Source: Anaerolineales bacterium
GTDB lineage: Bacteria > Chloroflexota > Anaerolineae > Anaerolineales > UBA11579
Direction: 5' to 3'
Assembly: GCA_019637805.1 (NCBI GenBank)
Contig: JAHBVB010000001.1
Span: 969,875 to 1,033,874, forward strand
Length of the DNA: 64,000 bases
Position numbers and translations under genes: made by a program. Within the stretch, counting starts at the first letter, position 1; the number at the start of each line of letters is the position of its first letter. Below, piece after piece: positions 4,651 through 56,138 of this stretch. The notes under the pieces were generated by a model. That model had not been told where the DNA came from. It saw nothing but the letters and a program-made list of their open reading frames with translations, and did not search any database.

Positions 4651-5690
4651 GACCCCTACTGTTTGCTTTAACCCTGTTTGCCTTGCTATTGGCGGCCTGC
4701 GCCCCGGCGGCTCAGGTCGACGGCCGGACCACGTTGACCGTGATGACCCATGATTCGTTTGCCGTTTCCGAAGCGGTGGTCGCCGCTTTCGAGGAGCAGC
4801 ATAACGCCGAGGTCGTCTTCCTCAAGGTGGGCGATGCCGGCTCTGCGACCAACCAGGCTGTGCTGGCTGCTGGCGCGCCGCTGGCGGATGTCTTCTATGG
4901 CGTGGACAACACCTTCCTCAGCCGGGCGCTGGAGGGCGATATCTTTGAGCCGTACGATTCGCCCCTGCTGGCCGAGATCCCCGACCACTTCAAGCTCGAC
5001 CCGCACAACGGGGCCTTGCCGGTGGACTATGGCGATGTGTGCCTCAACTACGACATCGCCTATTTCGAGGAAAACGATCTTGAGCCCCCGGCCAGTCTGG
5101 AAGACCTGCTCAAACCGGAATATGCCGGTTTGCTGGTGGTGCAAAACCCAGCCAGCTCCTCACCGGGCCTGGCTTTCCTGCTGGCCACCATCGGCCACTT
5201 TGGCGAAGATGGCTACCTGGACTTTTGGCGCGGCCTGGTGGCCAATGACCTGCGCGTGGTCAGCGACTGGGACACGGCCTTCTACACCGAGTTCAGCCGC
5301 TGGGGCGGAGGGCGACCGATCGTGGTCTCTTACGCCTCCAGCCCACCGGTGGACCTGATCTTCGCCGAGGAGCCGCTGGAGCGCCCGGTGACCGCTGCAC
5401 TGGTGGCGGACGACACCTGCTTCCGCCAGATCGAGTTCGTCGGCATCCTGCGCGGCACCCAACAGCGCGCCCTGGCCGAGGCCTGGGTGGACTTTATGCT
5501 CTCGCCCACCTTCCAGGAAGATTTGCCGCTGCAAATGTTCGTTTTCCCGGTCAACCCCAACGCTCAATTGGCTGAGGTCTTCGTGGATTTCCTGGAGGTG
5601 CCCCAGCAGCCGATCCTGGTCAGTCCTGAGGCGATTGCTGCCTACCGCGAAGAATGGGTGGCGGCCTGGACCGATGCGGTATTGCGATAA
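4647..5690 (+). CDS. thiB: Thiamine ABC transporter substrate-binding lipoprotein
   Basis: ATGA overlap with thiN. Signal peptide with lipobox 'LLLAACAP'. Fe3+/thiamine-type SBP fold. Assigned to thiamine from the riboswitch context. Confidence 0.8.
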   Translation: MRPLLFALTLFALLLAACAPAAQVDGRTTLTVMTHDSFAVSEAVVAAFEEQHNAEVVFLKVGDAGSATNQAVLAAGAPLADVFYGVDNTFLSRALEGDIFEPYDSPLLAEIPDHFKLDPHNGALPVDYGDVCLNYDIAYFEENDLEPPASLEDLLKPEYAGLLVVQNPASSSPGLAFLLATIGHFGEDGYLDFWRGLVANDLRVVSDWDTAFYTEFSRWGGGRPIVVSYASSPPVDLIFAEEPLERPVTAALVADDTCFRQIEFVGILRGTQQRALAEAWVDFMLSPTFQEDLPLQMFVFPVNPNAQLAEVFVDFLEVPQQPILVSPEAIAAYREEWVAAWTDAVLR

Positions 5691-42860: not shown

Positions 42861-42888
42861 ATCAATGCTTATGCCCATTTTTGCGGGC
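42861..42888. repeat. Direct repeat, right copy (functional 3' end of the DUF3090 gene)
   Basis: atcaatgcttATGCCCATTTTTGCGGGc. It encodes '...CARKNGHKH*' on the minus strand. Confidence 0.8.
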
Positions 42889-43386
42889 ACAGAAATGGCC
42901 GGCCGGGTCCATCGGTTGGCCGCACTGCGGGCAGATCGGGCGGCCGCGCGAGGCGATCTCGATGCCCCAATTGGCCAGGGCGCGGATCTGCGAGCGTGTG
43001 CACCACAAGCGCGCCAGCCCCAGCTCATCCGGCTCCTGCTGGCCTTCGGGCAGCTCACGCAGTTCCAGGGCTACCAGGTCGCCGTCTGGGTCGTAGCCCA
43101 AACCCAACTGGCCGACGCGGAAGATGGGGTCCACCGGCGGGTGGATGTGCATCTGGTCTTCGTCGTAGTCGGCCGAGGCGTCGGCCAGGTCGGCGTGCTT
43201 GGTGTTGATCTCAGCCAGGAACTGCTCCACGCCGACCGCCAGGCTCTGGATCTGGGTCTTCTCACAGACCAGGGTGATGATGCGGTCGTCCTTCCAGGCC
43301 TGGATGTAAAAGACGCGCTGGCCGGGGGCGCCAATCGCGTCGGTGGTGATGTGGTCTACAGGGCGAAGCTCGATGGGTTTAGGCAT
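42862..43386 (-). CDS. DUF3090 family protein
   Basis: 'GAPGQRVFYIQA' near the N-terminus and C-terminal 'CPQCGQPMDPAGHFCARKNGH'. ATG 43386 is preferred because it starts after the upstream stop; the track start is 43428. Confidence 0.82.
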   Translation of the reverse strand: MPKPIELRPVDHITTDAIGAPGQRVFYIQAWKDDRIITLVCEKTQIQSLAVGVEQFLAEINTKHADLADASADYDEDQMHIHPPVDPIFRVGQLGLGYDPDGDLVALELRELPEGQQEPDELGLARLWCTRSQIRALANWGIEIASRGRPICPQCGQPMDPAGHFCARKNGHKH

Positions 43387-43402
43387 AGAGGTGGATAGTA
43401 TA

Positions 43403-44023
43403 TCAGCCGGGTTTGGCAGCACCGTCACCGGCGCGCCAGTTTAAGTTGAGCAACTGGGCGCCAGCCTCGCCGATGAAGAGCGTACTGACCGAGGCCGTGT
43501 CCACCGAGAGCCGTTGGTACTGGTCCAGCGGCAGGCCGAGGTAGTGGGCAATGATCAGCTTGATCGGGTCGGCATGGCTGACGCAGGCGATGACGTCTTT
43601 GGGGCCGTGGCCGGCGCAGATCGCTTCGATCTGGTTAGCCAGGCGCAGCTGCTGCTCGGGGATGCTTTCACCGCCAGGGAAGCGGAAACGCGAAGGCGCC
43701 TGCTGCAAGACCTTCCAGGACTTCTCGCGGCGCATGTCCTTGAGCAGGCGACCCTGCCACTCACCCAGGTCGGTTTCCTGCAGGTCACGGCGGATGTGCA
43801 CTTTGAGGCCGTGGGCCTTGGCCAGCGGTGCAGCCGTCTCACGGGCGCGCTCCAGCGGGCTGCTGTACACCGCCGCCAGCGACGGCTTGGCCAGCGCGCC
43901 GGCCAGCGCGGCGGCCTGAGCCCCCCCGCGGGCGTTGAGATGCACGCCCGGCAGCCGCCCGGCGGCGCGCCCGGTTTTGACGAAGTCGTTTTCGCCGTGG
44001 CGAATCAATAGGACAAGCGGCAT
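43403..44023 (-). CDS. Histidine phosphatase family protein (MSMEG_4193-type putative phosphomutase)
   Basis: Internal ATG at 44023 gives 'MPLVLLIRHGEN' (RHG motif). The upstream 117 codons of the track ORF are out-of-frame overlap with rarA. 'VSHADPIK' supplies the second His. Confidence 0.85.
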   Translation of the reverse strand: MPLVLLIRHGENDFVKTGRAAGRLPGVHLNARGGAQAAALAGALAKPSLAAVYSSPLERARETAAPLAKAHGLKVHIRRDLQETDLGEWQGRLLKDMRREKSWKVLQQAPSRFRFPGGESIPEQQLRLANQIEAICAGHGPKDVIACVSHADPIKLIIAHYLGLPLDQYQRLSVDTASVSTLFIGEAGAQLLNLNWRAGDGAAKPG

Positions 44024-45519: not shown

Positions 45520-46020
45520 ATGGAACGCCGCATTCGCTTTCAGTTGGATCTAAAAGCCACTCCCGAAGAAGTCTGGGATGCCTGGCTCACAGCGCACACT
45601 TTCTTTGCTCCGGAATCCAAGATAGACGCCCGGCCCGGCGGGGCTTATGAAATGTACTTCGATCTGGCTGCCGCGCCCGGCTCACGCGGCGGGGAGGGCC
45701 TGGTGTTTCTGGCCCTGCAGCGCCCGCATTTGATCTCTTTCACTTGGAACGCTCCTCCGCACTTGGCGGATGTGCGCCCACAGCACACCCACATCACTGT
45801 GCGCCTCGAGCCGTTAGCAAATGGCACTCGTCTGCACTTCTGTGAGGATGGTTTTGGTCAAGGCGGCCAGTGGGAGCAGCGCATTGAGTATTTCCGGCGC
45901 GCCTGGGGCAAGGTCATATTGCCGCGCCTGGCGTATCGCTTTGACAAAGGTCCAGTCGATTGGGCGCACCCGCCCGACCTTGACGCCTATGTGGATTTGG
46001 TGACGGAAATTCGCGAATAA
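45520..46020 (+). CDS. SRPBCC (Aha1/START-like) domain protein
   Basis: ATG 45520 follows GAGGGA. 'PEEVWDAWLTAHTFF...GGAYEMYF'. The track start at 45007 is antisense to rarA. Confidence 0.78.
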   Translation: MERRIRFQLDLKATPEEVWDAWLTAHTFFAPESKIDARPGGAYEMYFDLAAAPGSRGGEGLVFLALQRPHLISFTWNAPPHLADVRPQHTHITVRLEPLANGTRLHFCEDGFGQGGQWEQRIEYFRRAWGKVILPRLAYRFDKGPVDWAHPPDLDAYVDLVTEIRE

Positions 46021-46086: not shown

Positions 46087-46524
46087 ATGGACCGCGTCAG
46101 TGCCCACATCCAGATCCAAGCCAGCCCGGCCAAAGTCTTTGACGTGTTTGTCAACCGGGTCAACGAGTGGTGGCCGCTGCAAGGCTACAGCTTTGCGCCG
46201 GAGCACACCACCCCCGGCCAGATCCACTTTGTTCCCGAAGTGGGCGGGCGTTTTTATGAAACCTTTGCCAACGGCGAAGAATTCCAGATCGGAGAGGTGA
46301 CCGTTTTGCAGTCCCCGGCGCGCTTCAGCTTCACCTGGAAGGGCGAGGCCTACAAAGAGGCCACAGAGGTGGATGTGATCTTGATCGAGGTGGCGGGCGG
46401 CACGCTGCTGACGCTGACCCACAGCGGCTGGGCGGCCGCTGGTGTGCGGGAGTTCGCCCCCAGCTACGCGGCGGGCTGGCCCAAGCTGCTGGCCCTGTTC
46501 GCCGCACTGGCCGAGCGGGACTGA
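46087..46524 (+). CDS. SRPBCC (Aha1/START-like) domain protein, second copy
   Basis: 'ASPAKVFDVFVNRVNEWWP', 'FSFTW' and 'THSGW'. Confidence 0.78.
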   Translation: MDRVSAHIQIQASPAKVFDVFVNRVNEWWPLQGYSFAPEHTTPGQIHFVPEVGGRFYETFANGEEFQIGEVTVLQSPARFSFTWKGEAYKEATEVDVILIEVAGGTLLTLTHSGWAAAGVREFAPSYAAGWPKLLALFAALAERD

Positions 46525-46527
46525 GGG

Positions 46528-46848
46528 TTAATCCGCCCGGCCGATCTCGAGCTTATTGAGCTTGCCCTCGGCATTCAAACCGAAGCGAAAATAGGCTTTG
46601 AAACTGCCCCATTGCTCGGTTTCGATGGTGCCGATCAGTTCATGACCATCCTGGCTTACCGCGTCGATGCTCACGAAACGCTCGTGGCCGATGGCGTTCT
46701 CGAAGAAGGGGCGGAAGGCCAGCGGCTGCCCGTCGTCCAGTAGTTCGGCGTCGTCGCTGAACTGGGCGAACCAGGCTGCTTTGTCGCCGGCTTGCAGGGC
46801 CTCAAAAGCGGCCTGGATGCTGGGATGGCCGAACTGCGGGGTTTCCAT
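46528..46848 (-). CDS. NTF2-like / SnoaL-like small protein
   Basis: 106 aa with an alpha+beta cone pattern: an N-terminal helix 'IQAAFEALQAGDKAAWFAQFSDDAEL', then beta strands. It lies 17 nt downstream of the NTase-like gene. Confidence 0.65.
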   Translation of the reverse strand: METPQFGHPSIQAAFEALQAGDKAAWFAQFSDDAELLDDGQPLAFRPFFENAIGHERFVSIDAVSQDGHELIGTIETEQWGSFKAYFRFGLNAEGKLNKLEIGRAD

Positions 46849-46865
46849 TCTGGGTAGCCCTCAGG

Positions 46866-48179
46866 CTAGCTTCCCAAACCGTCCATGTATTCTTTGATGG
46901 TCGGCACGCCGGTCATGCGCTCGTAATAGAAGTTGTTGACCAGGTTGATCAGCTCGGCCCGGGCTGACTCAGCCTTGGGCGAGAGCTGCTCGTGGACGCG
47001 CTCACGTGAGAGCACGTCGCGCAGCTGCAGCAGCTCGCGCACGATCTCCTGCTCTTCCGGGCCTTCCAGCGCCTGCACCACACTCAGGATCAGTTTGTCT
47101 GTCTGGCCCAGCAGGGTGTCCAGTTCGATCGACGAGTCGGGCGTAAAGCAGTCGTCAATCGTGCGGATCAGCGACCAGACCTGGTAGAGCACCGTAGCGG
47201 GTTCGTCGAAGAGCTCGCGGAGGAAGGCGGCTTCCTCATAGCGCCCGGTCAGGCGGAAGATGTTGTACATGCGCTTGGCGGCTTTGCCGAAGTTGGGGTC
47301 CTTGGTGGTGTACTTGCGCACCTCTTTTTCCAACTGGCGCACATATTCGTCCAACGCGTCGGCGTCCACCTGCTTGGCCAGCTTGGTGAACAGCGGGATG
47401 GAGCTGGCTTCCAAATAGACCTCTTGGAAATACGGGTCCAGGTAGCCGTCCAGCGGCGTGATCGTGCCGTCCGGCGCCTCCCAGGTGGCGTCCAGCATGT
47501 TGCTGGCGTTCACCAGTTGGCGGTGGGCCTTGTCGGCCACCACCCAGTCCAGCTTGCACCAGCCTGGGTCTTGCACAGCCTGCTGCCAGGTCAGTGTCAG
47601 CGGGGTGCCTTCGGCGTCTTGCAGTTCGATCTGCCCGGCCTGCACCTCGGCCGCATTCCAGGAGATCGGCGATCCAGCCGGCAGTTTCTTGCCCTCGCGC
47701 TGTACATCCTGCGGGTAGTTGCCCATTTTGATCTCGATCAGTTCGTAGCCCGGCCCCCTCAGCGTGCTGAGCGCCTTGTCACGGATCAGCTTGCCGAGGA
47801 TATCGCAGGCCTCTTCACGGGTGGGGGCGATGATGTTGACGCGCTCAAAGAAGTCGGCGTCGCCTGGGTAGGTTTGGATCTTGGACTGGGCCGCCGATCC
47901 GGAGAGCGCCAGGGCGGTCTCCACCTGGCCGGGAACGTCTTCAAACTCGACCAGCTTGCCCATTTTGCGGAAGTGGGCCAGCTCTTCCGAACTGAAGTCC
48001 AGCATGGTCAGGCGGTGGCCGAAGACGCCTTCCTTTACATCCACGACCACGTCGCTGTCCTGGCCGTCGCCGGCGGCGACCGCCGTGAGCCATTGCAGGG
48101 CGGCGCTCTCGTCCAGCTGTACGCCCAGGCGCTGGGCGGATTCGATGATACGTTGCAGGGCAGCAGAAGGTTCAGGCAT
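46866..48179 (-). CDS. Uncharacterised protein with a Pol-beta/cGAS-type nucleotidyltransferase motif
   Basis: ATG 48179 lies 7 nt after AAGGAG and overlaps the upstream stop by 8 nt. 'LSGSAAQSKIQTYPGDADFF' (nt 47853-47905) fits hG[GS]-x11-DxD. A later acidic strand reads 'KLDWVVAD'. The C-terminal half is helical. No named family was recognised. Confidence 0.7.
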   Translation of the reverse strand: MPEPSAALQRIIESAQRLGVQLDESAALQWLTAVAAGDGQDSDVVVDVKEGVFGHRLTMLDFSSEELAHFRKMGKLVEFEDVPGQVETALALSGSAAQSKIQTYPGDADFFERVNIIAPTREEACDILGKLIRDKALSTLRGPGYELIEIKMGNYPQDVQREGKKLPAGSPISWNAAEVQAGQIELQDAEGTPLTLTWQQAVQDPGWCKLDWVVADKAHRQLVNASNMLDATWEAPDGTITPLDGYLDPYFQEVYLEASSIPLFTKLAKQVDADALDEYVRQLEKEVRKYTTKDPNFGKAAKRMYNIFRLTGRYEEAAFLRELFDEPATVLYQVWSLIRTIDDCFTPDSSIELDTLLGQTDKLILSVVQALEGPEEQEIVRELLQLRDVLSRERVHEQLSPKAESARAELINLVNNFYYERMTGVPTIKEYMDGLGS

Positions 48180-48723
48180 GGCGGCTCTCCTTGATTTCAG
48201 CCAGTATAGCGGCAAACATCACTGCAGTTTGGCGCGCATCATCCAACGCATTGTGATTGAGCATCTGGGGCAGGCCGTAGCGCTGGCTGACCTGCTGGAA
48301 GCTGGCCTCGGCCCACGGCCCGCCGTGCAAGCCCATGTAGACGGCCTTGATGTCTATGGCGCGGTGGCCGAAGGGGTTGTTGTCCAGGTAGTGGTGAAAA
48401 TAATCGGCCACGAACATCCAGTCGAAGGGTGCGTTAAAGGCCACGAGGACTGGCGGCTGCCCCTGGCAGACTTGGGCCAGCCAATCAGCGAAGCGCTGCA
48501 TCCCCTCAGCCGGTTCCAGGCCGGTTTGGGCCAGCGCCTCCAGTGACAAACCGTGCACGCTCTGCGCTTCGGCGGTGTTGTTCATGTTGATTGGCTTGAA
48601 CTCGGCATAGAACTCTTGCTGCACATCGCTGACCAGCACGGCGCCCAGCGAAAGCATCGAATAATCGGCCGGGTTGGGGCCGGCGGTTTCGACATCCACA
48701 CAAATAAAGCATTCGTTTGGCAT
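48172..48723 (-). CDS. DEDDh 3'-5' exonuclease (DnaQ/RNase T-like)
   Basis: ExoI 'CVDVETAG', ExoII 'AFNAPFDWMF', ExoIII 'HNALDDARQTA'. Start ATG at 48723 or 48741; the longer track ORF would run into the divergent SBP gene. Confidence 0.85.
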   Translation of the reverse strand: MPNECFICVDVETAGPNPADYSMLSLGAVLVSDVQQEFYAEFKPINMNNTAEAQSVHGLSLEALAQTGLEPAEGMQRFADWLAQVCQGQPPVLVAFNAPFDWMFVADYFHHYLDNNPFGHRAIDIKAVYMGLHGGPWAEASFQQVSQRYGLPQMLNHNALDDARQTAVMFAAILAEIKESRHA

Positions 48724-48790
48724 AGAGGGCGATTCTAGCATGGGCAGGGGGCCAGCCCGCAAGTCCAGGCCAGCCGATATAATCCCCTGC

Positions 48791-50712: not shown

Positions 50713-50925
50713 TCAATAAGCAAAGACCGCGAAGCGGACAAGTACACGCCGAAACGAAGGCACAGAGAGCAGGAAGCGCTGAAAGCCTGCCCCCACGCCG
50801 GCTTGGAATGGACCGCCGAGTTGCGCAGTGAACGGATTTCCAGTAGCTGCCGCCGGTTCGCCCCCGTTAGCGGGCTTCAAGCGAATCAGCCAGTACGGCT
50901 GGTTAACTGAGGTGGCACCGCGGAT
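50713..50925 (+). promoter_or_regulatory. T-box riboswitch leader (Trp specifier)
   Basis: AGAGAG (50764-50769) and GCTGAAAGC lie in the Stem I distal region. The specifier context is GAA-TGG-A (TGG 50809-50811). The T-box sequence AACTGAGGTGGCACCGCGG (50905-50923) is followed by a terminator and trpS. Confidence 0.85.
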
Positions 50926-50929
50926 CCCT

Positions 50930-50981
50930 ATTCGTCCTCAATCACAGATTTCAATCTGTGATTGAGGACGAATTTTTATTT
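50930..50981 (+). terminator. T-box terminator hairpin
   Basis: ATTCGTCCTCAATCACAGATT / AATCTGTGATTGAGGACGAAT (about 20 bp) followed by TTTTTATTT. The 5' arm abuts the T-box sequence, allowing antiterminator competition. Confidence 0.85.
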
Positions 50982-50997
50982 CTCTGGAGGTAGAGCA

Positions 50998-51984
50998 ATG
51001 GCACAGACAAAAGGGCGCATTCTTACCGGGCATCGCCCCACCGGCCCGCGGCACATAGGCCACTTGGTAGGCACCCTGGAGCAGTGGCGCAAGATGCAGG
51101 ACGACTATGAGTGCTATTTCCTCATTGCCGACCTGCATGTACTGACCACTGACTTTGAGCACCCCGGCCGCATCCAGTCCAACATTACCGACGTGATGGT
51201 GGACTGGCTGGCTTCGGGCCTGGACCCGGCCAAGGCCACCTTCGTGCGCCAATCGGCGCTGATGGAGCATGCCCAGCTCTCGCTGCTGTTTGGCATGCTC
51301 ACCACGGTGGCCCGCCTGGAGCGCGTGCCGACCTATAAGGAGCAGATCCAGCAGCTCAAGCTCAACCCCTCGCTGGGGTTGCTGACCTACCCGGTGCTGC
51401 AAAGTGCCGACATCCTGATCTACAAGGCCAATCTGGTGCCGGTGGGTGAGGACCAGCTGCCGCACATCGAGCTGACCCGCGAGATCGCCCGGCGCTTCAA
51501 TACCCAGTACGGCGAAACCTTCCCGGAGGCGGAGGGGCTGCTGACCAAGACCGCCCGTTTGCCCGGCACCGACAACCGCACCATGCATAACTCCTATGGC
51601 AACACCATTCGCCTGGGCGACACGCCGGAGGAGACCACCAAGAAGGTGATGAGCATGTACACCGACCCGACCCGCCTGCGCGCCACCGACCCCGGTACAG
51701 TGGAGGGCAACCCGGTCTTCGAATACCACGAGGTTTTCAACTCCAACACTGACGAGGTGGAGGACTTCAAAACGCGTTACCGTGAGGGCAAGGTGGGCGA
51801 TGTGGAAGTCAAACGCCGCTTGGCCGAAGCGCTCAACGACTACTTGGCGCCCCTGCGCGCCCGCCGTGTGGAGCTGCAGAAAGATGCCGGCTATGTGGTC
51901 AAAGTGCTGGATGAAGGTACCGAGCGCGCCCGCCCGCTGGTGCAGGCCACACTGCGCGAGGCGATGGAGAAGATGGGGCTATAA
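50998..51984 (+). CDS. trpS: Tryptophan--tRNA ligase
   Basis: ATG 50998 follows GGAGG. 'TGHRPTGPRHIGHLVG' (HIGH-type motif). About 329 aa of class I TrpRS. The track start at 50962 lies in the terminator. Confidence 0.95.
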   Translation: MAQTKGRILTGHRPTGPRHIGHLVGTLEQWRKMQDDYECYFLIADLHVLTTDFEHPGRIQSNITDVMVDWLASGLDPAKATFVRQSALMEHAQLSLLFGMLTTVARLERVPTYKEQIQQLKLNPSLGLLTYPVLQSADILIYKANLVPVGEDQLPHIELTREIARRFNTQYGETFPEAEGLLTKTARLPGTDNRTMHNSYGNTIRLGDTPEETTKKVMSMYTDPTRLRATDPGTVEGNPVFEYHEVFNSNTDEVEDFKTRYREGKVGDVEVKRRLAEALNDYLAPLRARRVELQKDAGYVVKVLDEGTERARPLVQATLREAMEKMGL

Positions 51985-52016
51985 TCCAGTTTTAGATATT
52001 TCAATGGTGAGGGTGA

Positions 52017-53672
52017 ATGATCAAAAAGATAACTAGCTTTCCATTTTTTTGGTTACTTTTAATAGTACTTGTCGGCCTCGCCATACGACTGATTTTGTTC
52101 ACTGGGCAGATTCGTGGTGATGATTACTACTATGCAAAATCGGCCTTTGAGCTAACTCAGGGACGAACGCATTTCGGCGTGTGGTCTTTTGGGACTTCTC
52201 GTGTTGGCCTTTATGCCCCTACAGCACTGCTGTATACGGTTTTTGGTGTATCTCCATTGACAACAGCTGCATTTCCGCTCCTAACCTCTCTTGGCACGGT
52301 TGTACTGGTTTATCTGCTTGCAACCTTGTATGCGCCACCCAAAGCTGGGCTTATCGGCGCCATGCTTTGGGCCGTATTTCCGCTCGACATCTTTTTGGCC
52401 ACTGATCTAATGCCAGATGCACCAACCGCTTTCTTTTACACAGGTGTAATGTATTTCTTTTTGCGTGCTTATCGCGCCACTCCATTGCGTGAGCGTTTGT
52501 TTTGGAACTTAGGAGCACTTGTTTGTTTAATTTGGGGGTTTTACGTAAAGCCAACCATCATAGCTGCACCCTTGGCTATTGGTATTTTTATCAGCATCCA
52601 GATGGCCAAGTTGGTTTACCAGCGATTTCTTGCTCGAAGGATAGCAGTTCGATTTCTTCTTAAGAGCTTTTTGCTCACATTTGCTCTTTTGCTACTCGGA
52701 ATCATTTTGTTTTCTGGCACATTGCCGATTAAATTAGCTCGGGCCGGCACGGATTTCTCAATGTTGTTGACTATTGGCAAAACCAATATTCATAGCAGTG
52801 GATTCATTGTTACGTACACTCCCTTGTTTTTGCTGTTCGGTCCACTTTTCCTGATATCTGTCTTTCATTTGCTCATAAACTCAACGAAACGTGCTAATGA
52901 TTTGTTGGCCTTAGTTTTGATTGGCCTTGCTTATTTTGAGTGGGGCTCTTTTGAGACAAATATTTTCAAGTACAACCCACTTTGGGATTGGGGTGAAGCC
53001 CGTTATGTTATCTATTTGTTGCCGGGATTAGTCGCTCTGGCTGCGATGTACTTGGCGCGATTTGTGCAGGAAGATGTGCTTCGTAGGCTAATACTTATCT
53101 GGGCACCACTTATCATCGTGTTAGCAATCATCATGTCAAACCCGGGATCAGAAGCTTTAGGCAACCGATTCAGTGAAACCGCGGTAGTCTTGTCACTAAT
53201 AGGAATACTAGTTTCCGTTCTTTGGAGGCCATCTAAAACCCAGTCTTTGGTTAATCCATGGTTCGGTGCTGGATTGATATTGCTGATCAACCTGGGAGCC
53301 ATGGCCCCGGTGCAACCCTCAGATTGGCGCTTTTTTGCACCACGACTGGCAATGTTGGCTAACTTGCAAGAAGCGGCACAAGCCTTCGATATTGAAAGTG
53401 ATGGTCTTGTTTTTACTGATCACCCAAACATGCAGCTAGAATTTTCTTTTGACTTTGCCTTATCTGTGGATTGGGAAAATCAATTTCCTGCTGACCCTAA
53501 TGGACGTCTGCGTTTGGTAACTTCAACAAGCAATTTGGTATTGCCCTCAAATAGCTTGCTCTTCCTCTTCAACTCAGATAATCAACCACCGCGGGACGCT
53601 CAACTAATCTCGGAGCATTATTTTGAAAGACAGTTGCTTTTCCGTGTTTATGGGCCTTTGGATGCAGAATGA
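52017..53672 (+). CDS. GT-C fold (GT39/ArnT-like) membrane glycosyltransferase candidate
   Basis: 551 aa with more than 10 TM segments. First loop 'GQIRGDDYYYAKSAFELTQG' is a DD-type motif. Low GC. Confidence 0.7.
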   Translation: MIKKITSFPFFWLLLIVLVGLAIRLILFTGQIRGDDYYYAKSAFELTQGRTHFGVWSFGTSRVGLYAPTALLYTVFGVSPLTTAAFPLLTSLGTVVLVYLLATLYAPPKAGLIGAMLWAVFPLDIFLATDLMPDAPTAFFYTGVMYFFLRAYRATPLRERLFWNLGALVCLIWGFYVKPTIIAAPLAIGIFISIQMAKLVYQRFLARRIAVRFLLKSFLLTFALLLLGIILFSGTLPIKLARAGTDFSMLLTIGKTNIHSSGFIVTYTPLFLLFGPLFLISVFHLLINSTKRANDLLALVLIGLAYFEWGSFETNIFKYNPLWDWGEARYVIYLLPGLVALAAMYLARFVQEDVLRRLILIWAPLIIVLAIIMSNPGSEALGNRFSETAVVLSLIGILVSVLWRPSKTQSLVNPWFGAGLILLINLGAMAPVQPSDWRFFAPRLAMLANLQEAAQAFDIESDGLVFTDHPNMQLEFSFDFALSVDWENQFPADPNGRLRLVTSTSNLVLPSNSLLFLFNSDNQPPRDAQLISEHYFERQLLFRVYGPLDAE

Positions 53673-55657
53673 GAGAATTTTTTAAACGATACTCTGACTT
53701 GCTGCTTGTGTTAGCTCTTGCTTTGCTTGTGTGGGTGCTTTTTTTGCCAGGTGTAGCTTATGGTGAAACGGTCGAAAATGCATATCGTGCCTGGCAAATT
53801 GCGAATGGGTTGGGTGAACTTTTGGGCACACACTCACCTGCGAGCCTGTTTTCTGAACTGCGTGCCGAATTTGGTGGCCGAATATTGTTGGTTAATGGGC
53901 CCCTAGCTTTGCTCTATTTCTTGTTTGGGGTCAAGGATTGGACAACATTCTTTTTTCCGTTTGCCATGTCGCTAGTAAACATTATTCTAGTCTATCGTAT
54001 CACTTATTTTTTGGTTGGTCGCAAGGCGGGTTTCTTTGCTAGCTTGATCTGGGCATTCCAACCCAGTCAGGCATTTTTTGCCGGTGCGCATGCTGCTTGG
54101 CCTTGGCTGGTGACCGTCCTTCTTGCTGGCCTTGGCTGGCTCGCCCTCCATAAAACCCAATCCTTGCCACCAAAACTTATCCCCTGGTTCAAAGGCCTCG
54201 CAGTCGCTGCCATCGGACTGTTCTTAATGTTTGCAGATGGTTACATAGCGGTGCGCAGTTTCCTGGCTTTGCCGGAGTGGTATCTGCTTCTACCCGCCAG
54301 CTTCCTTGCTTTGCTGATCAGGCCGGCAACAGTCGAAGAGTTGCTCAAGAATTCTCGCTTCTGGTTTGCCTGGGTTTTGGGTTTGCTACTGATTAGTGGC
54401 CTGACCCGCGTTGACATCTTCATCTACGCTCAAGTATTAATCCCCCTGCTATTCCTTGGGCCGGCTTTGCTTGTAGCGGGCTACTTATCCTCTGTTCTAA
54501 TTGGGGATTTGCTGAAGCGGACGGTGATTGTGTTGTTGCCGTTCTTGGCTATTTGCGCTTGGCTAACTGGCGGGTTATCTCGAATTGCAATACCTGATTA
54601 TGGGAATGCAGAATGGTTAACTACTGGCCAGTTTGCGGTGGTTTTGCTGATTGGCTGTGGCTTGACCTTTTTGACCCTATTTGTAATTGCATGGCAATCG
54701 CACCACAAGATTGTTTGGTTGCATCTCCCACTCCATGTGATATTGGTGCTTGGTGTGATTTTTTCGCTCCTCTTAGTCATCCAGAGCCAAGGACGCAGTT
54801 ATGCCGACGCTTCTGCTCGCTGGCGGCTTGCAGATCAATGGCTTGGGTTAGAGGGTGCCGAGGGAATAGTAGTTGATTCACAGAGGCAGCGGTTACTCCT
54901 AGGATATGCCAGCGGATTCACCAAGCCAATAACTCGGCTGCCTGGAGATTTTGCCGAGACGCTCCCTGGTAGCTTGGTGATTCTGCCTGAAGAAGACGTG
55001 CTTCGGGTTCAGCTTCCTGAGAATTGGATTCGAGTCCAAAGCTTCGGACGCCCGGAAACTCCTCGCCTGATTGCATTCAGGGTTCTGGAGGAGTCGCTGG
55101 ACTGTAATGCTTTATCTGGCCTTGCCGAGAGGTTGGCAACTCCTTTGGCTGTTGTGGATTGTGATCAGCTGACTATTGGCTCAAATTTAATGGCAAACAT
55201 GATTCAAGATAAGGCTCTTCCCAAAGATTCCTCGGAAAACGCTGGCGGATTGTTGCTTTCAGAACTGCTTTCTTATGATGGTTTTCTGGATTCAGATAGC
55301 TTTCTTTGGGTGCAGCAACGTGACCAGCAGGGTGAGCACTTCGGCCTTTTTCAGAAATACTTCTTCTTTTACGACGGGCGGACGGTAGAGTTCCAGCAAG
55401 AGTTAGAACCGGATTCTTTGTATTACCTGCACGTTAAACTGAAAACCGAGCATGCTATTAGTGCGCTGTATTTACGTATAAGGGACGAGGAATACAGTTA
55501 TGGCTGGGTGTATCCGGAAGAATGGGGCACTTATGGACTATTGATCTCCACGGCTGGTTTTGAGGCCGTTCAAGAGGTTAGCATTTCTCCTGTGCTTATC
55601 AGCAACCATGCTCAGGTAGAAATATCACATTTTGGTCTTTACAAGCTGAAGCCCTGA
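53669..55657 (+). CDS. Polytopic membrane protein with a C-terminal soluble domain (GT-C-like, weaker)
   Basis: ATGA overlap with the upstream gene. About 11 TM segments, then a roughly 270-aa non-membrane domain. Low GC. Confidence 0.65.
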   Translation: MREFFKRYSDLLLVLALALLVWVLFLPGVAYGETVENAYRAWQIANGLGELLGTHSPASLFSELRAEFGGRILLVNGPLALLYFLFGVKDWTTFFFPFAMSLVNIILVYRITYFLVGRKAGFFASLIWAFQPSQAFFAGAHAAWPWLVTVLLAGLGWLALHKTQSLPPKLIPWFKGLAVAAIGLFLMFADGYIAVRSFLALPEWYLLLPASFLALLIRPATVEELLKNSRFWFAWVLGLLLISGLTRVDIFIYAQVLIPLLFLGPALLVAGYLSSVLIGDLLKRTVIVLLPFLAICAWLTGGLSRIAIPDYGNAEWLTTGQFAVVLLIGCGLTFLTLFVIAWQSHHKIVWLHLPLHVILVLGVIFSLLLVIQSQGRSYADASARWRLADQWLGLEGAEGIVVDSQRQRLLLGYASGFTKPITRLPGDFAETLPGSLVILPEEDVLRVQLPENWIRVQSFGRPETPRLIAFRVLEESLDCNALSGLAERLATPLAVVDCDQLTIGSNLMANMIQDKALPKDSSENAGGLLLSELLSYDGFLDSDSFLWVQQRDQQGEHFGLFQKYFFFYDGRTVEFQQELEPDSLYYLHVKLKTEHAISALYLRIRDEEYSYGWVYPEEWGTYGLLISTAGFEAVQEVSISPVLISNHAQVEISHFGLYKLKP

Positions 55658-55660
55658 CCG

Positions 55661-55693
55661 TTCTATTCGTACAAAAACAGCCGCGCACACGCG
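55661..55693. terminator. Bidirectional intrinsic terminator
   Basis: ACAAAAACAGCCGCG caca CGCGGCTGTTTTTGT, with A-run and T-run flanks. Confidence 0.72.
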
Positions 55694-55721
55694 GCTGTTT
55701 TTGTTGGGTTGGTCTGTGGGC

Positions 55722-56138
55722 TTATTGTACTTGGAAATTCAGCGTGGTGTCCAGTTCGCCGTTCAGGTAGATCTCCACCTGATAGGCGCCGGCTGGCCAC
55801 AGGAAACCGACTTCATTGGCCAGGTCGAAGACCAGCACCGTGCTGCCGCTGGTGATGGAGACTTCGTCGATCAGCAGGTTAGGCTCTTCACCCTCCGCGT
55901 CCGCCGCGATCCAGGCTGCCGTCACTTCTGTGCCGTCGGGTGCGTTGGCCAGGTCCACAATCGCATAGAAGACGGCTTCGTCGCTGTACACGCTGGTGCT
56001 TTGGGTGCCTTCACTGTCCAGGCTCATGTAGGCGTCGGCAATGTTGGCAGAGCTGTAGTTGAAACCACAGGCGATCTGCGCAACAACCAATACGGCCAAA
56101 ACAAGCATCAAAATAGATTTCTTTTGCATGGCATTCAC
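55722..56138 (-). CDS. Small secreted/lipoprotein-like hypothetical protein
   Basis: Signal peptide 'KKSILMLVLAVLVVAQIAC', followed by beta-rich sequence. No family was recognised. Confidence 0.6.
   Translation of the reverse strand: MNAMQKKSILMLVLAVLVVAQIACGFNYSSANIADAYMSLDSEGTQSTSVYSDEAVFYAIVDLANAPDGTEVTAAWIAADAEGEEPNLLIDEVSITSGSTVLVFDLANEVGFLWPAGAYQVEIYLNGELDTTLNFQVQ

Follow-up and report, generated by a model that had tools for sequence, protein, structure and literature searches.

We analysed a stretch of 64,000 nt from the genome of an Anaerolineales bacterium (contig JAHBVB010000001.1 of assembly GCA_019637805.1), referred to here as the window and numbered from its first nucleotide, which carries on its minus strand three consecutive genes that a first-pass annotation, made from the sequence alone, had taken together as one undescribed system: a DEDDh exonuclease (gene 1), a protein with a nucleotidyltransferase (NTase) motif (gene 2) and an NTF2-like protein (gene 3). 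Our findings suggest that the first two of these genes constitute a vertically inherited module in which an NTase makes a short product that the exonuclease, whose gene is coupled to that of the NTase, hydrolyses in a housekeeping or signalling role. This is the reading we favour, and we hold it with slightly less than even confidence.

Gene 1 occupies positions 48172-48741 and encodes a protein of 189 amino acids when read from the ATG at 48741 (a second, alternative ATG lies at 48720) to the TGA at 48174-48172. Gene 2 (46866-48179) encodes 437 amino acids between the ATG at 48179-48177 and the TAG at 46868-46866. The 8 nt ATGCCTGA are common to both genes, and a translational coupling region can be delimited at 48172-48192, in which AAGGAG (48192-48187) and a 7-nt spacer precede the gene 2 ATG and the overlap takes in both this ATG and the gene 1 TGA. 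The co-directional arrangement of the three genes, their coordinates, this overlap and the AAGGAG 7 nt ahead of gene 2 had all been reported in the first-pass annotation, and we find them as described in the table of open reading frames (ORFs) and on the minus strand, as we do every peptide motif quoted there: CVDVETAG, AFNAPFDW and HNALDDAR in the translation of gene 1, and LSGSAAQSKIQTYPGDADFF (residues 92-111) and KLDWVVAD (residues 209-216) in that of gene 2. We take the two genes, which code for a predicted active exonuclease of the Cap18 type and a predicted active NTase, to be co-translated.

The product of gene 1 matches the Pfam RNase_T domain (expect value (E) 3e-10) and, over its full length, the PADLOC model PDLC00753 ('Effector/Exonuclease'; 1.7e-61), with a Cas-associated DEDDh model scoring 2.4e-22. 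Its best match among Protein Data Bank (PDB) chains is 7t2s (E 4.5e-38, 41% identity), an entry deposited as "3'-5' exonuclease", and the PolC exonuclease follows (1e-7), with RNase T among the weaker matches (5e-4). We take 7t2s to be the structure of Cap18 from Escherichia coli upec-117, and to be the same solved EcExo structure that is cited in a 2026 preprint (bioRxiv 10.1101/2025.03.04.641389). Exonucleases of the RNase T/oligoribonuclease type have the DEDDh motif and the RNase_T domain in common with gene 1 but are, by these E values, far more distant from it than is Cap18. Across 91 orthologues of the exonuclease, residues D16, E18, D107, H163 and D168 do not vary, and the Phe of an NPFG motif common to gene 1 and Cap18 (F124) is conserved in 98% of them. 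The domain match, the matches to 7t2s and PADLOC and the invariant DEDDh residues bear out the first-pass identification of gene 1 as a DEDDh exonuclease. They also place it, as an enzyme predicted to be active, in the Cap18 clade, a membership that the annotation did not contain and that associates gene 1 with CBASS, a system of signalling against phages that is based on cyclic oligonucleotides.

Relatives of gene 1 are also encoded on plasmids. A tblastn search found homologues in 96 plasmid records, and the 15 matches listed are 45-48% identical to gene 1. The copy on Pseudomonas aeruginosa plasmid pBJ86 (locus L168) adjoins JAB, E1/E2, nucleotidyltransferase and SAVED genes, that is, a type II CBASS, and a Bradyrhizobium plasmid copy comes after three genes, with 'ATP-binding protein' as the sole annotation there, the sizes and order of which suggest a type III CBASS operon. 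Gene 1 itself does not lie in a CBASS operon: no CBASS genes are found nearby, and its partner is an NTase of a different kind, resembling the Megavirus chilensis protein Mg662.

The gene 2 protein family and its predicted fold

Gene 2 had been described as matching nothing that could be named, and this holds. Neither the protein searched against Pfam, NCBIfam, PADLOC, PHROGs and the PDB sequences (phmmer) nor its family profile and members searched against PDB and Pfam gave a significant match, and every source that names a homologue labels it 'hypothetical protein'. The family is large: among 8,000 candidates scored it has upwards of 6,000 clusters at 90% identity, and there are 587 clusters at 50% identity at E <=1e-3. 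We found no match in Pfam, NCBIfam or PADLOC that would place gene 2 with toxin NTases of the MenT/AbiEii or MNT type (DUF1814/NTP_transf_2-type), no sequence relation in Pfam or NCBIfam to the PcnB/CCA class II enzymes and, in the literature searched, no published description of the family or of its pairing with gene 1. The gene 2 protein has an isoelectric point (pI) of 4.6 and a net charge of -28, that of gene 1 a pI of 4.6 and a net charge of -14, and the members of the gene 2 family mostly have a pI of 4.6-5.1.

We modelled the gene 2 protein with AlphaFold from an alignment of close homologues (predicted local distance difference test score (pLDDT) 78.5) and again, in a second model (AF2), from a more diverse alignment (pLDDT 85.9, predicted template modelling score 0.85). 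The second model comprises a small alpha/beta N-terminal domain (residues 1-62), an NTase core (residues ~63-256) and an all-helical C-terminal domain (residues 257-437). The helices (H) and strands (E) of the core, H64-77, E86-92, H94-97, E108-117, H121-138 and E145-154, follow one another in the order helix-strand-helix-strand-helix-strand that is typical of Pol-beta-like NTases, with G94-S95 placed after strand one and D107-x-D109 where strand two begins or slightly ahead of it; the model also has several beta-hairpin insertions.

The sole significant PDB matches of both models in Foldseek searches are to Mg662 (entries 4ams, 4xul and 4amq; probability 1.0, E 1e-6 to 1e-5, template modelling (TM) score 0.52-0.60 normalised to the target). 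Two of these three entries are titled 'a new nucleotidyl transferase' and one is a GTP complex; Mg662 is not known to have a function beyond the NTP binding that the PDB title indicates. Among predicted viral structures (BFVD) there are 15 matches with E <=1e-3 (best 9e-15; TM 0.37-0.69 target-normalised, 0.37-0.59 query-normalised), to virophage proteins (Zamilon, Yellowstone Lake, Qinghai Lake, mavirus and a 'V21 virophage-like protein') and to giant-virus proteins, one of which, from Pithovirus, is annotated 'Nucleotidyl transferase'. Gene 2 has no strong structural relatives other than Mg662 and these viral proteins (Zamilon, Sputnik V21-like, mavirus, Pithovirus), which, like gene 2, have an NTase core and then a helical domain. 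They are unlike gene 2 in that identity is 9-17%, with no sequence relation found by a profile search of the PDB, in that gene 2 has extra beta-hairpin insertions and the 62-residue N-terminal domain, and in that hosts and context are entirely different. The lesser Foldseek matches, namely OAS1, the cGAS/DncV-like nucleotidyltransferases (CD-NTases) ClCdnE and DwCdnB, FAM46A, MiD51 and a tRNA-processing NTase, are individually weak and, apart from a scatter of unrelated proteins, are all NTase-fold enzymes. The OAS (2'-5' oligoadenylate synthetase), cGAS, MiD51 and FAM46 enzymes resemble gene 2 in their two-lobed NTase core with a helical domain and in the GS...DxD signature but differ from it in that the matches are weak (E 0.01-0.3, TM ~0.2), with no Pfam match of gene 2 to OAS1_C, Mab-21 or SMODS.

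The residues expected of an NTase active site are conserved throughout the family. An alignment of 33 homologues down to ~30% identity shows no variation at S95, D107, D109, D230 or D244 and little at G94 (conserved in >=90%), and in an alignment of 67 sequences all six are invariant. Other residues invariant to ~30% identity are G153, W174, W233, Y279, R303, Y305, N306 and R309, and K209, D248, Q252 and K299 are, like G94, nearly invariant. The first-pass annotation had identified gene 2 as a candidate Pol-beta-superfamily NTase from a short hG[GS]/DxD signature and had named structure prediction with Foldseek and the conservation of the motif aspartates as checks. Both support that identification, the signature being conserved and the match to Mg662 having a probability of 1.0, and we predict that gene 2 encodes a Pol-beta-superfamily NTase with a helical C-terminal domain which, as modelled, belongs by structure, though by no detectable similarity of sequence, to the little-studied group of Mg662-like NTases. 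What did not stand is the suggestion that KLDWVVAD supplies the third carboxylate, as several distant homologues have G, S, A, N, E, R or V in place of D211 and D216. Since D230, on the strand formed by residues 221-234, and D244 are invariant, one of these two is more likely to be the third catalytic carboxylate.

We also considered whether gene 2 might be a CD-NTase, and rejected this. When the family profile was compared by hhalign with a pair of proteins presumed to be CBASS CD-NTases (that on pBJ86 from its annotation as a nucleotidyltransferase, the other, L169, from gene order), the probability was 0.2, and gene 2 is not a member of the cGAS/DncV-like (SMODS/Mab-21) family by sequence, with no match to a PADLOC cyclase or in Pfam and a Foldseek probability of <=0.41.

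We note that some distant homologues of gene 2 look extracytoplasmic while retaining the catalytic residues. Two (P0212 and P0245) have signal-peptide-like N-termini; in a third (P0257, 1291 amino acids) the gene 2 domain comes after AbfB, F-box-associated (FBA), C-type lectin and PLAT domains, in an arrangement that looks eukaryote-like; and in a fourth (P0177) it comes after a PQQ/BamB-like propeller. The sole candidate for a fusion of exonuclease and NTase, a protein of 213 amino acids (P0174), matches the exonuclease N-terminus at residues 6-69 and gene 2 residues 242-384 at residues 70-212. We set it aside because it joins the beginning of one protein to the middle of the other and is probably a chimera of assembly or gene calling.

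Distribution and inheritance of the gene pair

When genomes were scanned, one per species, close relatives of gene 2 proved to be encoded in 470 of them, and we compared the gene neighbourhoods in the best 80 of these, all of which are from Chloroflexota, mostly Anaerolineae. A Cap18-type exonuclease gene lies directly upstream of the gene 2 homologue, on the same strand, in 66 of the 80 loci, with a median gap of 26 nt; the two genes overlap in 16 cases, and 60 of 65 measurable gaps are of <=100 nt. Clustering of all flanking ORFs identified the exonuclease as the sole neighbour conserved across the 80 loci, and the recurrence of the same adjacency in this many related genomes indicates a coupling far beyond chance. 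Elsewhere in the family the exonuclease gene lies downstream of the NTase gene, either co-directional with it (L086/L088, L090 and L110) or convergent (L127 and L135); the exonuclease of L086, 32% identical to gene 1, matches the Cap18-type PADLOC model at 5e-31. Since the adjacency is kept when order and orientation change, a functional link between the two genes is well supported. The description of genes 1 and 2 as a tightly coupled unit, made from one locus, applies across genomes. Among the 80 genomes is that of a named strain with a RefSeq entry, Bellilinea caldifistulae GOMI-1, which carries the pair.

Gene 2 appears to be vertically inherited across Anaerolineae and to evolve slowly. 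In loci that also carry rarA or trpS, the identity of the gene 2 homologue to its counterpart in the window is closely correlated with that of RarA (r 0.98; means 75.9% and 77.8%) and with that of TrpS (r 0.98). The exonuclease evolves faster than gene 2 (mean identity 51%). A mobile-element origin of gene 2 was considered and rejected, as no match to it was found in 50,697 phage and 72,556 plasmid records, and the patchy, mobile distribution expected of a defence island was not observed for gene 2 in the best 80 genomes. The neighbours of the pair, in the window and elsewhere, include trpS with its T-box, the gene for an ATP-binding cassette (ABC) substrate-binding protein, rarA, a histidine phosphatase gene, DUF3090, ilv/leu genes and SelB. 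No linked effector with a nucleotide-sensing domain is conserved in the 80 loci, and no PADLOC model matches gene 2. Together these observations fit a vertically inherited core function rather than a defence island. The pair is probably not a defence system, given the RarA-like rate of divergence, the absence of phage and plasmid matches and the lack of a conserved effector neighbour.

In a close sub-lineage with ~77-79% identity to gene 2 (loci L003, L004 and L009) the adjacent exonuclease has been lost and the NTase is intact. The distance from the NTase gene to the substrate-binding protein (SBP) gene upstream of it is ~110-270 nt in L003/L004 and ~1.6 kb in L009.

What the gene pair may do

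In a type III CBASS operon of which Cap18 has been named an accessory gene, a catalytic-dead version of it left phage protection unaffected (bioRxiv 10.1101/2022.01.04.474952). Exonucleases of the Cap18 clade (Exo) have been reported to show little activity on long nucleic acids and to hydrolyse selectively the linear intermediate, with its 2'-5' linkage, that cGAS-like enzymes form, as well as 2'-5' oligoadenylate, and P15, V55 and the stacking F120 were named as residues that shape the pocket of VcExo (bioRxiv 10.1101/2025.03.04.641389). Gene 1 residues P22, V62 and F124, which are aligned with Cap18, are putative equivalents of these three when mapped by offset from the catalytic residues (not by an alignment with VcExo), and on this basis we infer that the NPFG Phe of gene 1 corresponds to VcExo F120. 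That gene 1 belongs to the Cap18 clade makes it more credible that the nuclease acts on what the NTase produces.

In the mechanism we propose, gene 2 would encode an active, template-independent Pol-beta-superfamily NTase of an unannotated family with an Mg662-like fold. The G94-S95 loop, D107/D109 and a third carboxylate (D230 or D244) would bind two metals and the NTP, the C-terminal domain helix that carries K299, R303, Y305, N306 and R309 would hold the second nucleotide or triphosphate, and the enzyme would join nucleotides, untemplated, into a short product, for instance a di- or oligonucleotide, that may be 2'-5'-linked. The Cap18-type exonuclease would hydrolyse this product, or a linear intermediate that is released, and would thereby set its steady-state level, which is the role proposed for Cap18-clade Exo beside cGAS-like enzymes in CBASS. 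Nucleotide-sized substrates fit two strongly acidic proteins (both of pI 4.6) better than polymeric RNA or DNA does. We favour a short oligonucleotide over the tailing of RNA because of this acidity, because the family libraries recognise no nucleic-acid-binding module in gene 1 or gene 2 and because the exonuclease clade is reported to prefer 2'-5' dinucleotides. A housekeeping or signalling role seems to us more plausible than abortive infection, since the pair is chromosomal and slowly evolving and has no linked killing effector. A more specific version, which we regard as improbable, is that the NTase family makes 2'-5'-linked oligonucleotides for signalling outside defence, that these are policed in Anaerolineae by a dedicated Cap18-type 2'-5' phosphodiesterase, and that the pair is the housekeeping counterpart or the evolutionary source of the NTase-Exo checkpoint of CBASS.

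An NTase with a cognate DEDDh exonuclease is a known kind of couple; the NTase family and the pairing described here are uncharacterised. By analogy, the pair would work most like the CD-NTase-Cap18 couple of CBASS (E. coli upec-117, 7t2s; pBJ86), with which it has in common an exonuclease of the same DEDDh clade (41% identical to Cap18, and 45-48% identical to the plasmid copies embedded in CBASS) encoded beside a Pol-beta-superfamily nucleotidyltransferase. It is unlike that couple in that gene 2 is not a CD-NTase by sequence and its structural similarity to CD-NTases is weak; in that the Anaerolineae pair is without an effector, HORMA/TRIP13 or E1/E2/JAB; and in that it is vertically inherited and slowly evolving, with no phage or plasmid match to gene 2. 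As the NTase family, the requirement for an effector and the distribution all fail to agree, the pair is not a CBASS.

The first-pass annotation had framed the locus as a defence module. Read in this way, the pair would be an anti-phage system like CBASS, or a toxin-antitoxin system: upon infection the NTase would produce a nucleotide that serves as an alarm or is toxic, with the exonuclease as threshold or antidote. Of the readings we have weighed it is the least supported, and we consider it very unlikely. The pairing of an NTase with a nuclease does follow the logic of such systems, gene 1 is strongly matched by a PADLOC model and has relatives in CBASS operons, and the genes around the pair vary. 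Set against these points are the housekeeping context (trpS, rarA, ABC substrate-binding protein and ilv/leu genes), the clade-wide vertical distribution of a gene 2 that diverges at the rate of RarA, the failure of gene 2 to match any PADLOC model or any phage or plasmid record, and the absence of a conserved effector or sensor gene nearby; on these grounds we find the defence framing unsupported. Vertical, housekeeping-like conservation is in turn what one would expect if the pair instead tailed and trimmed RNA 3' ends, with the NTase adding untemplated nucleotides to tRNA or other RNA, in the manner of poly(A), CCA and TENT enzymes, and the exonuclease trimming them like RNase T, for maturation or quality control. 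We regard this as a serious rival, if an unlikely one. Gene 2 has weak structural matches to FAM46/TENT5 and to a tRNA-processing NTase, RNase T is among the weaker PDB matches of gene 1, and a review (PMC10419184), citing Liang et al. 2022, calls Cap18 a general 3'-5' exonuclease on single-stranded DNA and RNA. The structural matches to RNA-tailing enzymes are, however, at probabilities of <=0.35, and gene 2 has no sequence relation to the PcnB/CCA class II enzymes; the acidity of both proteins, the lack of an RNA-binding domain recognised by the family libraries and the little activity of Cap18-clade Exo on long nucleic acids (10.1101/2025.03.04.641389) also argue against it.

Gene 2 might alternatively be an NTase-fold transferase that acts on an acceptor other than a nucleic acid (a small molecule, protein or glycan, as with enzymes of the ANT, LicD and FKRP type), in which case the adjacency of the exonuclease would mean something else. 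The acidity of the family, the signal-peptide-like N-termini of P0212 and P0245 and the fusions of P0257 to AbfB, FBA, C-type lectin and PLAT domains and of P0177 to a PQQ propeller would be in keeping with this. The exonuclease, on the other hand, is kept adjacent in three gene arrangements, the nearest characterised relatives of gene 1 act beside nucleotide-joining enzymes, and no ANT, LicD or FKRP protein is among the 50 matches listed for each Foldseek search of the PDB, and we think such a transferase quite unlikely.

Several observations weigh against the synthase-and-exonuclease module that we prefer. Of the loci flanked on each side by at least 700 nt, 39, from divergent metagenome clades that include one of 50-55% identity, have no adjacent exonuclease, and three Thermomicrobiales-like loci also have none; the NTase thus needs no neighbouring Exo, and the many solo NTases show its partner to be an accessory one, just as in CBASS. 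Nor was a receptor or effector found that could respond to a putative signal. The Foldseek matches of gene 2 to OAS1 and the CD-NTases are weak (probability 0.25-0.57, TM ~0.2), and the profile comparison with CBASS CD-NTases finds no relation. The activity of the gene 2 family is itself a prediction, the sole solved relative, Mg662, being known from PDB titles. The general exonuclease activity that the review ascribes to Cap18 also counts against the module.

For a large family that has neither a Pfam nor an NCBIfam model, the analysis yields a fold assigned with confidence, a defined catalytic signature and a partner that is conserved. That the Cap18 clade is coupled here to another family of NTases, and in a core setting that is not mobile, suggests that a checkpoint consisting of a synthase and an exonuclease is older or broader than phage defence. 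The structural tie to the ORFans of giant viruses and virophages (Mg662 and V21-like) could help to assign those proteins a function, and the pair in B. caldifistulae GOMI-1 makes the question tractable.

Gene 3 and the surroundings of the pair

Gene 3 (46528-46848, minus strand) encodes an acidic protein of 106 amino acids from the ATG at 46848, 17 nt beyond the end of gene 2, and is preceded by GAGGG at 46862-46858. Its description as NTF2/SnoaL-like is borne out only as a weak similarity, the match to SnoaL_2 (E 0.0022, 19 bits) lying below the Pfam cutoff of 27 bits; the best PDB match, to a steroid delta-isomerase, is not significant (E 0.19), and there is no match in PADLOC. Synteny of the three genes had been named as a check, and genes 1 and 2 do recur together. 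Gene 3, by comparison, was found in only one of 167 related loci, that of the nearest, 98%-identical relative (L001). In L002 (87% identity) there is no match to gene 3; past the gene 2 stop, tblastn first matches, from 7318 on, an SRPBCC gene encoded on the other strand. The absence of gene 3 from 166 of 167 loci marks it as a lineage-specific passenger that is probably outside the module, and we accordingly drop the three-gene unit.

The block of three genes is flanked on one side by a convergent AHSA1/SRPBCC gene (46087-46524, plus strand) and on the other by a divergent SBP_bac_5 gene, the ORF of which is listed from 48674 with a lipoprotein-like start at ~48791. The convergent gene is one of two tandem AHSA1/SRPBCC paralogues (45550-46020 and 46087-46524, both on the plus strand) inserted between the NTase module and rarA, which in several more distant relatives (L015, L041 and L080) comes ~15-80 nt after the NTase gene. 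At 3.4 kb downstream of gene 2 there is a DUF3090 gene (42862-43428, minus strand). DUF3090 recurs in the flanks of nine related loci, one of which is a distant, Thermomicrobiales-like locus (L082) where the DUF3090 gene (5073-5669) is directly upstream of the NTase homologue, and this recurrence may be a remnant of synteny or the sign of a weak functional link.

Promoter and terminator scans gave nothing informative, and the only match in an Rfam scan for regulatory RNA was a T-box leader (RF00230, 108 bits) at 50720-50942 on the plus strand, directly upstream of the tryptophanyl-tRNA synthetase gene (trpS, 50962-51984), where it represents ordinary regulation. Beyond trpS, the G+C content falls to 0.445-0.51 at 52001-56000, compared with ~0.62 elsewhere in the window. 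This stretch contains a gene for a PMT_2-type membrane glycosyltransferase (52017-53672) and a 662-amino-acid ORF without a Pfam match (53669-55657), and may have been horizontally acquired.

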